Source: Candidatus Multivorans sp. (lineage in GTDB: Bacteria > Acidobacteriota > Thermoanaerobaculia > Multivoradales > Multivoraceae). Taken from it: DNA of 64,000 nucleotides. Both the position numbers and the translations under genes were made by a program. The stretch covers positions 2,755,035 to 2,819,034 of the forward strand of contig OZ244152.1 in assembly GCA_965216125.1 (NCBI GenBank), in the 5' to 3' direction. The notes below the pieces were generated by a model. That model was not told the origin of the DNA. It did no database searches and saw only the letters and a program-made list of their open reading frames with translations. Positions 56,101 to 63,784 of the stretch are shown here, one piece after another; the first letter of the stretch is position 1, and each line of letters opens with the position of its first letter.

Positions 56101-59100
56101 ATGGCCCGCCGTCGAGGTTGCCGACGACGCCGATTTGCCCCCGTGCTGGTCCATCCGATCCACCGCCGCTACTTTGCGGAAGAACTCGTCCGCGTGCGGC
56201 GCGCCGGCGAGCGCCGCCGGCAGGTGGCTTCGCAACGTCGTGCGCGTGTCGATCCGAATCCGCACCAGATCGACGCGGTCATGTTCGCGCTGCGCCGCAT
56301 CCCGGAAGGCGGCTGCATCCTTGCCGACGAAGTAGGTCTCGGCAAGACCGTCGAGGCTGGCCTTGTCATCGCTCAACTGCTCGCCGAGGGCGCCAAGAGG
56401 ATCCTCATCGTCCTGCCTCGGCCCCTGCTGGGCCAGTGGCAGAGTGAGCTCTACACGTTGTTCGGGATCGAAGCGGTCGAAGCGGCGGACACCGCGGTCG
56501 ATGTCGCCGCCGCCGGTGTCTTTCTCGCCGGGCGCGAGTATGCGGGCGGCGACGCGGGGTTCGAGCGTCTGCGCAAGTCGCCGCCGTTCGACCTGTGCCT
56601 GATCGACGAGGCCCACGAGGTCTTCGCAGCCGTCCACCGGCGCTTCGACCGCCACGGTGTGTACGATGAGAACAGCGGCTACGCGCGCACCGCGCACCGC
56701 CTTCGCAAGATCATCGGGGCGGCTCCTGTGCTGCTGCTGACCGCGACACCGATTCAAAACTCGCTCTCGGAGTTGTGGGGGCTGGTCCAGTACATCGACC
56801 GGACCGGCACTCTGCTGGGCACGAAACCCGTGTTCGAGGATGTCTTCTGCGCCGGCGGCGATGGGCGCCGTGTCGCCGCTGAGCAGGCGGTCGAACTCAA
56901 GCGCCGGCTTGGCGCCGTGGTCCAGCGCACACTCCGGCGTCAGGCGCAGGACTTCCTCGACAAACCGTTCGTCGGCCGGCGCGCACAGCTCTTCGAGTAC
57001 CGCATGAGTGCCGCGGAGCGCACTCTCTACGACGATGTGACGGACTACCTGCTTGAGCCCCGGCTCCATGCGTTTCGAGGCCGTTCGCGGCAGTTGCTGC
57101 TGCTCGGCTTCCACCGCCGCATGGCGTCGTCGACCGCGGCCTTCGCGCAGAGCCTCGAGCGTGTGGCCCAGCGACTGCGCAACATGCTCCAGAACCCTCA
57201 CGAGTCAGATGACGCGGACGCGGCGGTCGCGGTCTTGGCTGGCGACCTGGAGGAAGACCCCGCGGATCTCGCCGCCGTCGGAATCGTGACCGAGGTCGGG
57301 GAGGAGGCTGCGGCGGAGGCCGTGGAACAGCCCGCCCTCGATCTCGGCGCCGTGCGCCGCGAGCTGGCGCGGGTGGAGGACTTCGTCCGCCGCGCTCGGA
57401 GCCTGCCCCAGGACAGCAAGGCGGCGAGCTTGGTCAAGGCGGTGCGCCTCGTCAAGGCGCGGCCCAAGGATCGGCGCAAGGTGGTGATCTTCACCGAGTC
57501 GCTCACTACCCAGGACTACCTGCGACAGCTCCTGCTGGACCAGACCGACCTTGAGGATGGTGACATCACGTTGTTTCGCGGCGTCAACGACTCGGCCCGT
57601 GCCATGGCAGCCCTGCGGGTGTGGCGCGAAGAGGTCGAGTGTGACATCGCACAGCGCCTGCGACCGAGCGCGTCCGTGGCCGTGCGCCTCGCGCTTGTAC
57701 ACGAATTCCGCACGCGGGCCCAGGTGCTGATCTCGTCCGAGGCCGGGGCGAAGGGGTTGAATCTTCAGTTCTGCGACACCCTAGTGAACTACGACCTGCC
57801 CTGGAACCCGCAGCGCATCGAACAACGAATCGGCCGCTGCCACCGCTACGGGCAGAGGCGCGACGTGACGGTGATCAACTTCCTGGCCCGCGACAACGAG
57901 GCGCAGCGCCTGACCTTCGAGATCCTGAGCACCAAGCTCGACCTGTTCGGCAAAGTGCTCGACATGTCAGACGTGGTCTTGCAGACACCGAGGTCGGACT
58001 CGTCTGAGGAACTCGCCTCCGCGTTGGGCTCGGATTTCGAGACGCAGGTGCGCCGCATCTGGGACCGGGCGCGGTCCGTGCAGGAGGTCGAGGAGGAACT
58101 GCGTCGTCTGCGTGATGCCATGGAGGAGGGCCGTCGCCAACTCGAACAGGTGCGCAGGCGCACGGTGGGCCTGATCGAGAAGGGGCTGGACGAGTCGGTG
58201 CGGGCGGTCCTACGTAGCATTCAGGCCGAGTTGCCGGCGACGCTTGCCGAACTCGACGGCGAACTCGAACGAGTGCTGAGCGCCTATCTCGACGCCGCGG
58301 GCATCGCGTGGGGCGTGGGCGAGCGGGACGGACGTCGGGTCCTACATGTCGGCGCTTCGCGGCGGCTCCCCGAGGCCGTGGCCGACGGCGTCTCTGTGGC
58401 CTTGGGCGCCGCGCGCGACATCTCCGACATCGAGTCTCTGCATGTCGCCCATCCGCTGATCGAAGCCGCGGTGGCAGAGGCGCGAGCGGCGGGTTCGGGC
58501 AGTTTCCGGGTGCGGTTCGATCTTTCTGCCGAGGCGCCTGAGGCGCTCAGACGGCGCCGTGGCTGTCGCGGGCGTCTGGCTTTGACCCGGGTGGCGCACG
58601 CCGGCTTCGAGCGCGAGGAGCGGCTGTGCGTTGCGGCTGTGTTCGAGGACGCCGAAGTCCTGCGCCCTGCGGAAGCTGCAGTCGAACTGCTGCGCCAGCC
58701 CTGCGCCGACGTTGCCGCATTCACCCCGCCGCTGGCGTTTCCTCTCGACCATCTCGACGATGTGATCGAGGAGGAGTTGTTTCTCGATCAGAGCAGCGTC
58801 GCCGAAGACGACCAGGCGAGTTTTGAAGGCGCGATGGATCAACTCGACCAGTATCTTGCCGATCGCATGCTGGTGCTACGCCGGGACCGGGAACAGCACC
58901 GCAAGCGTCTTGCCGCTGCCGAGCGCCAGCGCGACCAAGCTCTTGGCGCCGAGAGTCGCGCCAAGGCCGAGGCCGGCGCGCGCGCTCTTGAAGCCGGCAT
59001 CGAAAGGCTGGACGCGCAGATCGAGGAGCTGGTCGCCGGCGACGATGAGACCTATCGGCGCTGGAGAGATCACGCTCACAGCCGCCGCTACGGCAGACCG

Positions 59101-59142
59101 GAGGCCGAACGGCTGTTGACCGCGGAATTCGTCATCGGATGA
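56101..59142 (+). CDS. SNF2-family (RapA/HepA-like) DEAH helicase with a C-terminal coiled-coil-rich extension of about 430 aa
   Basis: In-frame ATG 56101. Motif I ADEVGLGKT. Motif II LIDEAHE. Helicase-C NYDLPWNPQRIEQRIGRCHRYGQ. Glu/Arg-rich extension after the helicase core. Confidence 0.8.
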   Translation: MARRRGCRRRRFAPVLVHPIHRRYFAEELVRVRRAGERRRQVASQRRARVDPNPHQIDAVMFALRRIPEGGCILADEVGLGKTVEAGLVIAQLLAEGAKRILIVLPRPLLGQWQSELYTLFGIEAVEAADTAVDVAAAGVFLAGREYAGGDAGFERLRKSPPFDLCLIDEAHEVFAAVHRRFDRHGVYDENSGYARTAHRLRKIIGAAPVLLLTATPIQNSLSELWGLVQYIDRTGTLLGTKPVFEDVFCAGGDGRRVAAEQAVELKRRLGAVVQRTLRRQAQDFLDKPFVGRRAQLFEYRMSAAERTLYDDVTDYLLEPRLHAFRGRSRQLLLLGFHRRMASSTAAFAQSLERVAQRLRNMLQNPHESDDADAAVAVLAGDLEEDPADLAAVGIVTEVGEEAAAEAVEQPALDLGAVRRELARVEDFVRRARSLPQDSKAASLVKAVRLVKARPKDRRKVVIFTESLTTQDYLRQLLLDQTDLEDGDITLFRGVNDSARAMAALRVWREEVECDIAQRLRPSASVAVRLALVHEFRTRAQVLISSEAGAKGLNLQFCDTLVNYDLPWNPQRIEQRIGRCHRYGQRRDVTVINFLARDNEAQRLTFEILSTKLDLFGKVLDMSDVVLQTPRSDSSEELASALGSDFETQVRRIWDRARSVQEVEEELRRLRDAMEEGRRQLEQVRRRTVGLIEKGLDESVRAVLRSIQAELPATLAELDGELERVLSAYLDAAGIAWGVGERDGRRVLHVGASRRLPEAVADGVSVALGAARDISDIESLHVAHPLIEAAVAEARAAGSGSFRVRFDLSAEAPEALRRRRGCRGRLALTRVAHAGFEREERLCVAAVFEDAEVLRPAEAAVELLRQPCADVAAFTPPLAFPLDHLDDVIEEELFLDQSSVAEDDQASFEGAMDQLDQYLADRMLVLRRDREQHRKRLAAAERQRDQALGAESRAKAEAGARALEAGIERLDAQIEELVAGDDETYRRWRDHAHSRRYGRPEAERLLTAEFVIG

Positions 59143-63300: not shown

Positions 63301-63784
63301 TTCGGTCGGCACCCAGGAGCAGATCGCGCTCCTGCTGCGTATCTCCATCGCCGAAGCGCTTGGCGTCTTCGTGATTCTCGACGACCAGCTCACGCAGTCC
63401 GACGAACGCCGTATGGCTTGGCTGCGTGGGTTGCTGGCCGACACGGCGGCGAACATCCAGGTGGTCGTGATGACGTGCCACCCGGAGGACTACGGGATTG
63501 GGCCGGGCATAAATGTCGTGGACCTGACCGAGTGCCTCTCGCGGAGTGCGAACGGCGGCGCGGCCTCGGCAACTTCGGGCCAGGGCGGAGAACCGGCTGC
63601 TGTGCCGGACAATACGAAAGCGGCCAAAGTTCCATCGGCCAGCGCGCGGAGACCGGAAGCAACAGAGAGCGGACCGACGACCAGTCGCCGGAAACGGCGA
63701 ACGCGAGGCACCAGCAGTGAGCCGAAAGAGCAGGATCTTGCCGCGGCGTTGAAGGAGTCGCTGACTCGAAAGAGCGACTCGTAG
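60356..63784 (+). CDS. SbcC/Rad50-like SMC ATPase without a zinc hook (YhaN-like)
   Basis: N-terminal Walker A LHGPNELGKSS. Heptad E/R/A-rich region of about 800 aa. C-terminal signature-like LSVGTQEQ and Walker B VFVILDDQ. No CxxC motif anywhere. 4 nt after the SbcD-like stop. Confidence 0.75.
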   Translation: MWIRRLKVADCAGIASAEVDLEPGLNVLHGPNELGKSSLVQAVRAALLLESGSRAAEILVDWHADAPPTVDLTFETEAQRVWRVRKSFAGAGGGYAYLEFSKDGCEFSQDSRGREVDGKLSEMLGWGIKAPGGRGGRRGMPVSLITTALLGEQGDVVAILKGSLADDPDESGREHLTRALQGLAEDPRMKVLLDSVQEKVDEAFTATGRRRSGQASPWTQLRSERAAADQREREVRQQREESEGARLNAERLQRELLEAQAEADDAGRALTGARTALAQRGEHDEAAAKLARAEEDLDRVRTSIEERDAGVAALSAARTEVVALEAEHGDAERALAHIVPQVEAARGLVREQETGGDEQQRRLREQETENRSLAAVHEEKELERSVDQAKTLAALDADVGTRSAELEGCEAELARDRALLDQAVQATEADEDRLEDLAVEHCCARYLAASRAARTSARELEAVLEQARRAAARTSEAQATSATAAALNAPSAEQMDRLRELGTNLRIAREKLAVGLVAALTLEKAATAEVGVDGVARPVRIGGGERLEFEAERELRFDLPGVGTLHVQGGSRELVAHVETAEERWNAAGKPIFARTGLGSLAELEDLRRRADDQFAAAVALDRQADDARVRAEGVDGLERRDVVARAECERHRQAVAEFLEEGASVEDYIKGLGEPPRDEAIIGNDIAALKDEVRQREELRRQLMSKVEGDLRDIASRRRVLDDKQAELRRADSGWRDVLEDAEERLRDLARRRQEFDAQLEAIRVEATAEVDEAREKLAELEAVEDGARRRLEQVNALLGGKRTAFARLEGEAETLSRAAEREDIDAARADRDRCRETLESLPAVAEAPEIDLVDLERAGAEAKGKVREIESQLGRTEGALETVGGQYIEEQAEQAREALGALNEREHELEVEYEAWKLLGETLKEAQETDAAHLGRVLLQPVSGRMAELTGGRYGEVAIGPELDATGIELGGAEREFGRLSVGTQEQIALLLRISIAEALGVFVILDDQLTQSDERRMAWLRGLLADTAANIQVVVMTCHPEDYGIGPGINVVDLTECLSRSANGGAASATSGQGGEPAAVPDNTKAAKVPSASARRPEATESGPTTSRRKRRTRGTSSEPKEQDLAAALKESLTRKSDS

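Follow-up and report, generated by a model that had tools for sequence, protein, structure and literature searches.

Three neighbouring genes, encoding a SNF2-family ATPase, a Mre11/SbcD-like nuclease and a Rad50/SbcC-like ATPase devoid of the zinc hook, were found in a stretch of 64,000 nucleotides (nt) of contig OZ244152.1 from Candidatus Multivorans sp. of the Acidobacteriota (positions 2,755,035 to 2,819,034, forward strand; hereafter the window), and their comparison with related loci firmly shows an obligately linked three-gene module with intact catalytic motifs, which is exchanged horizontally. The parts of this cassette are familiar and their combination is undescribed. Judging from sequence, the trio is somewhat probably a methylase-independent defence system, in which a SbcCD-like nuclease of DNA ends and hairpins would be coupled to a DrmD-like translocase. 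Mre11-Rad50/SbcCD is a universal sensor of DNA ends, the SNF2 motors are universal removers of proteins from DNA, and in eukaryotes both cooperate in end resection; to our knowledge, no hard-wired pairing of SNF2 with Mre11-Rad50/SbcCD has been described before in bacteria. One operon, whose genes are inherited strictly together in no fewer than three phyla and which behaves as a mobile cassette, thus offers a tractable three-protein system for learning how a translocase hands DNA to a nuclease of the Mre11-Rad50 type, as well as a test case for the turning of repair machines into immune systems, as proposed for Lamassu. The hook-less apex and the invariant Asp-Asp of Walker B bear on the dimerisation of Rad50-type arms and on ATP-gated cutting, and the DrmD motor, taken as a portable module, makes the second example after IetHAS and may help explain the role of DrmD in DISARM.

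A preliminary description of the window, made from the letters alone, had listed three long same-strand open reading frames (ORFs) at 56101-63784 (+). They are present, with codon-position GC of the coding type in a window of about 67% G+C, and the inconsistencies are minor and concern the start of the SbcD-like gene: the length of 376 amino acids (aa) and the preceding gap of 38 nt given there are incompatible, because each belongs to another SbcD start. The SbcC-like gene begins 3 nt after the SbcD-like one. Its further claim, that of a conserved three-gene module, passed the synteny test, since the order SNF2, SbcD, SbcC was retained in all 26 distinct related loci, approached both from the SNF2 side, by scanning one genome for each species and by contig look-ups, and from the SbcD side, by a metagenome scan, with intergenic gaps of 17-85 nt between SNF2 and SbcD and of 5-55 nt between SbcD and SbcC. 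These loci span Acidobacteriota, Myxococcota and metagenome-assembled genomes (MAGs) labelled Gammaproteobacteria. On the SNF2 side, with loci from Bryobacteraceae, Luteitalea, Thermoanaerobaculia, Terriglobia, Polyangiaceae and metagenomic genomes, every locus with SNF2 identity of at least 50% and room downstream contained a SbcD-like and then a SbcC-like gene. On the SbcD side, the SNF2 gene lay directly upstream in 14/14 loci of at least 46% SbcD identity, and the SbcC-like gene followed in 12/12 of the loci with room. Even the Aminicenantes locus, with identities of only 34%, 32% and 28%, has the same tight gene order.

The only rearranged case (L003/L004, 12997-22958) carries a Dam-like D12 methylase gene between SNF2 and SbcD, and its SbcC-like gene is situated about 6 kb past SbcD, beyond argZ-like, putA and DUF6364/PIN genes; a Uma2 gene is found just upstream. 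Outside the group the linkage is lost: about 70 loci with DrmD-like SNF2 genes of 28-37% identity had no SbcCD, about 60 canonical SbcD loci had no SNF2, and the SbcD-like/SbcC-like pairs of about 30% identity (L099-L101) are without SNF2 and their ATPases are shorter, at about 800-880 aa. The pairing of SbcD with SbcC does not vary from phylum to phylum, and therefore chance adjacency is unable to explain the trio. No conserved fourth gene was found, the flanks varying among genomes. The trio is patchily distributed: among the matches listed, very few of the species representatives, about 185,000 in number, gave a close one. The SNF2 proteins of the MAGs labelled Gammaproteobacteria are 68-72% identical to the window copy, and those of other Acidobacteriota classes about 50-62%, a pattern which may reflect exchange across phyla or bins that carry the wrong label.

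The three proteins and their known relatives

The SNF2 protein comprises 1013 aa from the ATG at 56101 or 999 aa from the GTG at 56143, the latter being the likely true start according to homologue alignments and the public gene call. Among 16 homologues of 38-53% identity, motifs I (GLGKT), II (DEAH), III (TATP) and VI show no variation (alignment A1; the coordinates of the features are given in Table 1). The DrmD models of DISARM match nearly the whole length of the protein, with E of about 1e-121 and scores of 404 bits for NF038318 (cutoff 950) and 231 bits for NF038317 (cutoff 610), and in sequence terms it is a homologue of DrmD under the equivalog level. The preliminary description had called the helicase SNF2/RapA-like and had named a housekeeping rapA as a refuting case; this fails, as the score of 135 bits for the RapA equivalog NF003426 lies well under its cutoff of 576, the nearest named relative is DrmD, and the N-terminal (RNA-polymerase-binding) domain is missing because the ATPase core begins at about residue 46. 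From the C-terminal extension, claimed as a coiled coil, the long helices stand and a purely coiled-coil nature does not: in the AlphaFold 2 (AF2) model, a 74-residue helix is followed by a globular domain of alpha/beta type rich in strands, by a helical hairpin and by a last strand, and the model gave no fold match in the PDB at E<=0.001. Since the NF038317 alignment covers residues 159-991, the C-terminal region is taken for a homologue of the corresponding part of DrmD.

For the SbcD-like nuclease, an alternative start at ATG 59180, used in the public gene call, would extend the protein to 390 aa. It scores under the family cutoffs (TIGR00619 sbcd, 69.7 bits against 77.65; PRK10966, 38.9 against 450), and its PDB matches, Mre11 and SbcD, are restricted to the N-terminal ~90 residues. 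All five phosphoesterase motifs, D10/H12, G55-D56, GNHD 89-92, H166 and GD-x-H 197-200, are invariant across nine homologues, including the 27%-identical one from Aminicenantes (alignment A2), in agreement with what had been read from the single sequence.

The family profile of the SbcC-like protein aligns to the Rad50 heads in the PDB, and the 40 homologues of alignment A5 conserve Walker A, Q-loop, signature (LSVGTQEQ), D-loop and H-loop; the Rad50 models give 25-34 bits, with cutoffs of 700-1087. By pattern search, CxxC is absent from the window protein of 1142 aa, as noticed at the outset, and from 40/40 family members. The AF2 model (mf3a29932fedb; mean pLDDT, the predicted local confidence, 70.8, with low-confidence head domains) shows a pair of long arms, both helical (residues 217-512 and 572-951), between which an apex beta domain takes the place of the zinc hook; V514, G515, D533, L555 and G570 are conserved positions of the apex region in A5. 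A fold search with this model returned generic SMC, MukB and Rad50 matches of low TM-score and, for this reason, informs on the superfamily only. In the hidden Markov model (HMM) alignment, 'LILDE' of P. furiosus Rad50 stands opposite 'ViLDD' of the family, D1009 and D1010 being invariant in A5, and the position of the Rad50 catalytic Glu is thus occupied by an invariant Asp (Asp1010). The same LDD is found in the distant Aminicenantes homologue (L009) and in the plasmid outgroup, and, by analogy with the ABC ATPases in general, it may lead to slow ATP turnover. The C-terminal tail is missing in many homologues of 1065-1076 aa. In a Terriglobia MAG (L011, 14102-17337) the SbcC-like frame is broken, with one ORF ending at 15052 and the next resuming at 15784, which is either a pseudogene or an assembly error. 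Inside the window SbcC-like gene there is an antisense ORF of 400 aa (61262-62464, -) with high third-position GC, in all likelihood a shadow ORF of the kind that commonly accompanies high-GC genes.

Table 1. Features of the cassette and its borders in window coordinates
Feature	Coordinates	Strand	Basis
gltX (glutamyl-tRNA synthetase), left slot border	54563..56056	+	Pfam tRNA-synt_1c + Anticodon_2
Identical tract, 8157 nt, 0 differences vs strain L001	55754..63910	.	blastn + MAFFT
DrmD-type SNF2 ATPase/translocase	56101..59142	+	Pfam SNF2-rel_dom + Helicase_C; top named matches are DrmD models
SNF2 motif I (Walker A, DEVGLGKT, residues 76-83)	56326..56349	+	invariant, 16 homologues
SNF2 motif II (DEAH, residues 169-172)	56605..56616	+	invariant, 16 homologues
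SNF2 C-terminal region, residues 631-1013	57991..59139	+	AF2 model m9e7a08f140a7, mean pLDDT 83.5
Mre11/SbcD-family nuclease	59225..60352	+	Pfam Metallophos; 375 aa, ATG 59225 preceded by AAGGAA
SbcD motif III (GNHD, residues 89-92)	59489..59500	+	invariant in A2
Hook-less Rad50/SbcC-family ABC ATPase, 1142 aa	60356..63784	+	Pfam AAA_23, weak SMC_N
SbcC Walker A (GPNELGKS, residues 30-37)	60443..60466	+	invariant in A5; pattern search
SbcC apex domain, six beta strands, residues 516-568	61901..62059	+	AF2, local pLDDT ~75-90
SbcC Walker B FVILDD, residues 1005-1010	63368..63385	+	HMM alignment, P. furiosus Rad50
SbcC basic Ser-rich disordered C-terminal tail, residues 1063-1142	63542..63781	+	pLDDT <50, residues 1063-1125
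glnS (glutaminyl-tRNA synthetase) 3' end, right slot border	63821..64000	-	gene call + Pfam on contig L001

All three proteins stay below the cutoff of every NCBIfam model, and PADLOC v2 has no model for the SbcD-like or the full-length SbcC-like protein. The SNF2+SbcCD system was not described in the literature searched, which took in papers on BREX diversity, on a reappraisal of Dnd, on YprA/ARMADA, on domain-centric discovery and on anti-conjugation systems, the 2020 classification of ABC ATPases lying outside that search; the preliminary description had likewise not recognised the association.

Among the known systems, class 1 DISARM resembles the cassette in its motor, the window SNF2 being homologous to DrmD in both the ATPase core and the C-terminal region. 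Like DrmD, the looser SNF2 relatives adjoin an N6 methylase (of about 40 DrmD-like outgroup loci, at least 28 have a Type III-like N6 methylase gene immediately downstream), and one cassette variant carries a methylase; the DrmD-DrmMI arrangement belongs to class 1 DISARM, whose core is formed by adjacent drmA (helicase), drmB (DUF1998) and drmC (PLD) (10.1101/2021.12.28.474362). Unlike DISARM, the cassette has the SbcD/SbcC-like pair as partners, is usually without methylase and misses the DrmD cutoffs. DrmA, DrmB and DrmC were found neither in the window nor in the flanks of 20 in-group loci, and a DrmMI-type methylase is absent from the window, the only in-group exception being the D12 Dam-like gene of L003/L004. 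In IetHAS, similarly to the trio, a DrmD-like motor joins an unrelated two-gene effector pair: IetAS captured a DrmD-like helicase, which is required for protection (PMC13069673), and the partners there, unlike the Mre11/Rad50-type nuclease complex of the trio, are a protease and an ATPase. The DrmD-type motors accordingly act as portable defence modules, judging from the methylase-paired outgroups and from the capture by IetAS.

With canonical SbcCD/Mre11-Rad50 the cassette shares a gene for a five-motif nuclease upstream of one for an ABC ATPase, the latter built from a head, an antiparallel coiled coil and an apex; it differs by the absence of the CxxC hook, the beta apex domain, DD instead of DE in Walker B and the signature LSVGT, and its pair is under all family cutoffs, always preceded by SNF2, and mobile and patchy rather than core. 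The likeness to YhaN/YhaO (SbcEF), suggested earlier, stands as a resemblance of architecture only, namely of a hook-less SbcC paralogue with its own central domain beside a SbcD paralogue, and does not extend to family membership, which is unsupported because the match to the YhaN-type Pfam model AAA_27, over residues 1-46 only, reaches 18 of the required 22 bits. SbcEF of Bacillus subtilis, moreover, has no SNF2 partner and belongs to a conserved Gram-positive set next to yhaM. Gabija and Lamassu also unite a long-armed or ABC ATPase with a nuclease, Gabija having a helicase as well, and Lamassu is argued to stem from Rad50/SbcC-type repair machinery (PMC12663957). The SbcC-like protein matches LmuB (33 bits, residues 1-126) and GajA (30 bits, residues 1-53) in the N-terminal P-loop only, no LmuA or Toprim effector is present with the trio, and the trio differs by its nuclease, of Mre11 type and not Toprim or Cap4, and by its helicase, SNF2 and not UvrD.

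Mobility and the variable slot between gltX and glnS

The tract shared without a single difference with another strain (L001, 5399-13555) spans the whole cassette, and ends inside the 3' end of gltX on the left and inside the 3' end of glnS on the right, while the flanking sequences diverge, with 287 differences in 5398 nt (about 5%) on the left and, on the right, 8 within the final 90 nt. Such a tract is what a recent transfer of exactly this cassette by homologous recombination would leave. The slot itself (window 56057-63820) has variable contents in three relatives sharing the upstream gene order: a HEPN + nucleotidyltransferase (MNT) pair in the relative with gltX 94% identical, a Xre + RES pair in that with gltX 84% identical, and the trio, with SNF2 69% identical, in that with gltX 83% identical; the genes beyond glnS are shared with the window in the first of them only (comparison loci L170, 11692-12647, and L171, 11554-12479). 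The gltX|glnS slot is, thus, a variable hotspot in this lineage. The window gltX shares 90% identity with its counterpart in a Holophagales MAG, and on this ground the host was taken for an Acidobacterium of the Holophagales type. The glnS gene, cut by the window end in the sequence read directly, is convergent with the cassette, and the genes flanking the cassette are gltX, TPR, FG-GAP, DSBA and glnS.

In the other carriers examined, the flanks are unrelated from genome to genome. One contig of 3.19 Mb contains two full trios (L173, 10001-17420; L174, 10001-17496), with SNF2 proteins 80% identical, of which one adjoins IS-type (insertion sequence) transposase genes and the other a Mrr_cat/NA-iREase1 nuclease gene. 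Considering the identical tract, the variable slot, the differing flanks and the two-copy genome, the cassette reads from the sequence comparisons as mobile. A close homologue of the trio was found on none of 72,556 plasmids or 50,697 phage records, where only distant SbcD-like pairs and DrmD-like SNF2 genes were matched, and the window copy has no bordering integrase, transposase or repeats. A promoter and terminator scan of 55900-64000 gave no signal exceeding the shuffled expectation.

Defence, repair or a selfish role

For the defence function the following scheme may be proposed. A SbcD2-SbcC2-like complex would clamp DNA ends, hairpins or protein-blocked ends through ATP binding, and would then cut these structures on incoming or replicating foreign DNA. 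Such ends, hairpins and protein-blocked ends are abundant on injected, conjugating or rolling-circle DNA. The SNF2 motor, of the kind recruited by DISARM as DrmD and by IetHAS as IetH, would track along duplex DNA and either deliver or activate the nuclease, or strip protective proteins so that the nuclease can engage. That the proteins form a complex, which DNA they act on, what the motor does and that the trio protects its host are all predictions. The preliminary description left the choice between repair and defence; the module stands, and the choice leans towards defence, without being settled, by virtue of mobility, the variable hotspot, the two-copy genome, the defence neighbours and the DrmD ancestry. 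In a wider form, which is plausible yet tentative, the trio would be an unnamed methylase-independent immune system with a Mre11/Rad50-type end/hairpin nuclease hard-wired to a SNF2 remodeller, a prokaryotic counterpart of MRN-SNF2 and an intermediate from repair to a Lamassu-like state, with a new dimerisation domain at the apex and a slow clamp due to the Glu-to-Asp replacement.

Directly adjoining neighbours of individual copies include Avs2 (L089), a PDC-S37/Hhe-like giant protein (L090) and Gabija GajAB (L092), and one copy (L168) has Zorya type I 3 kb upstream and RelB/ParE downstream. A 'PD-T4-6' neighbour in a Polyangiaceae locus was left out of the defence count as a generic Ser/Thr kinase, and the 'mad3' matches were cross-matches of ABC transporters with no defence gene. 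Related pairs with other motors were also encountered. Conjugative plasmid p1 of Sphingobium sp. CAP-1 (L165, 5701-14771) encodes a SbcD-like protein matched over its full length at 28% identity, the pair with an 876-aa AAA ATPase lying between a RNase_H_2+SF1 helicase-nuclease and a N6/N4 methylase, with HEPN, DUF3883 and WYL regulator genes alongside. The locus has the look of an uncharacterised counterpart driven by another motor: it is similar to the trio in having a motor, a SbcD-like and a hook-less SbcC-like protein, with the Walker B DD in the related plasmid pair, and dissimilar in that the motor is RNase_H_2 plus AAA_11/12, the SbcC-like protein is shorter, with about 880 aa, and the plasmid-borne locus includes a methylase gene. 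On a Burkholderia plasmid, a related SbcCD-like pair is found beside DUF4297-HerA, between integrases. On a marine contig (L100, 9992-19999), the SbcD-like gene and a SbcC-like gene for 881 aa are followed co-directionally by those for a TerB_N/TerB_C protein, a BrxC/BrxD-like ATPase and a DEAD-box helicase. Judged by these plasmid and marine pairs, the layout of a motor with SbcD-like and hook-less SbcC-like proteins recurs with other motors.

Several points weigh against a defence function. Most copies, including that of the window, have no methylase or other marker of self and non-self, and no PADLOC model matches the SbcD-like protein. The window cassette is situated between tRNA synthetase genes, a setting that, taken alone, looks housekeeping-like, and no PADLOC defence match is found outside it in the 64 kb. 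A recognised defence system was seen beside only about 4-5 of about 17 loci with usable flanks; because many other flanks are metabolic, the enrichment in defence neighbours is real, yet moderate. The SNF2 protein, about 50% identical across phyla, is unusually conserved for a defence gene, and DinB and PolB genes occur near two copies (L168 and L167). The identical tract could conceivably be an assembly or polishing artefact, since metagenome assemblies are concerned. Finally, the closest characterised hook-less relative by architecture, SbcE/SbcF with its unique central domain, serves in break repair and competence (PMC2811018).

The main alternative, possible but doubtful, is a specialised accessory machine for the repair of double-strand breaks or hairpins, which would act on blocked or folded ends of the host's own chromosome, with SNF2 clearing nucleoid proteins, RNA polymerase or Ku-like end binders before resection. 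Its parallels are archaeal Mre11-Rad50-HerA-NurA, Bacillus SbcEF and eukaryotic MRN with Fun30 or INO80. The components come from repair families, toxins are as absent from most copies as methylases, and the repair role stays alive because SNF2 is so well conserved, a self-marker is missing and DinB or PolB genes lie nearby. Repair operons of a helicase with a metallophosphoesterase are known as well, such as Lhr-MPE (PMC7826289). Against repair, the relatives of the motor are defence helicases and not repair helicases, close relatives have toxin-antitoxin pairs and no cassette at the same slot, and the identical tract marks a recent exchange between strains; two diverged copies in one genome, the defence systems beside several copies and the patchy distribution argue in the same direction.

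An improbable alternative to defence is a selfish or element-associated role, in which the cassette would benefit its own mobile DNA and not the host, for example in the competition between elements, in stabilisation of its own locus or in exclusion of rival cassettes at hotspots. The hotspot is otherwise occupied by addiction-type toxin-antitoxin pairs, a transposase stands beside one copy, related SbcCD-like pairs are carried by conjugative plasmids, and the recent recombinational sweep spans exactly the cassette. However, the window copy is without flanking integrase, transposase or repeat borders, the plasmid and phage records hold no close homologue of the trio, and its presence at the same slot, though gltX is only 83% identical, suggests long residence. 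A degenerate or partial class 1 DISARM, or a housekeeping rapA lying by chance beside an ordinary sbcCD, is effectively refuted and both were rejected, for although the top named SNF2 matches are DrmD models and a weak RapA match exists, the cutoffs of both equivalogs are widely missed, DrmA, DrmB, DrmC and DrmMI are found neither in the window nor beside any in-group copy, the synteny is invariant across phyla beyond chance adjacency, and the SbcCD-like pair is non-canonical, with no hook, scores under the cutoffs and the Walker B DD.

Other genes of the window

Apart from the cassette, three successive giant ORFs of about 2200, 2070 and 1140 aa occupy 25698-41854 (+), with 33-36% identity to a partial ORF at 2-2653. 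A domain census of 17 window ORFs taken together counted PKD (5 members), SWM_repeat (3) and Calx-beta (2), and the giant ORFs are likely to encode secreted or surface repeat proteins.

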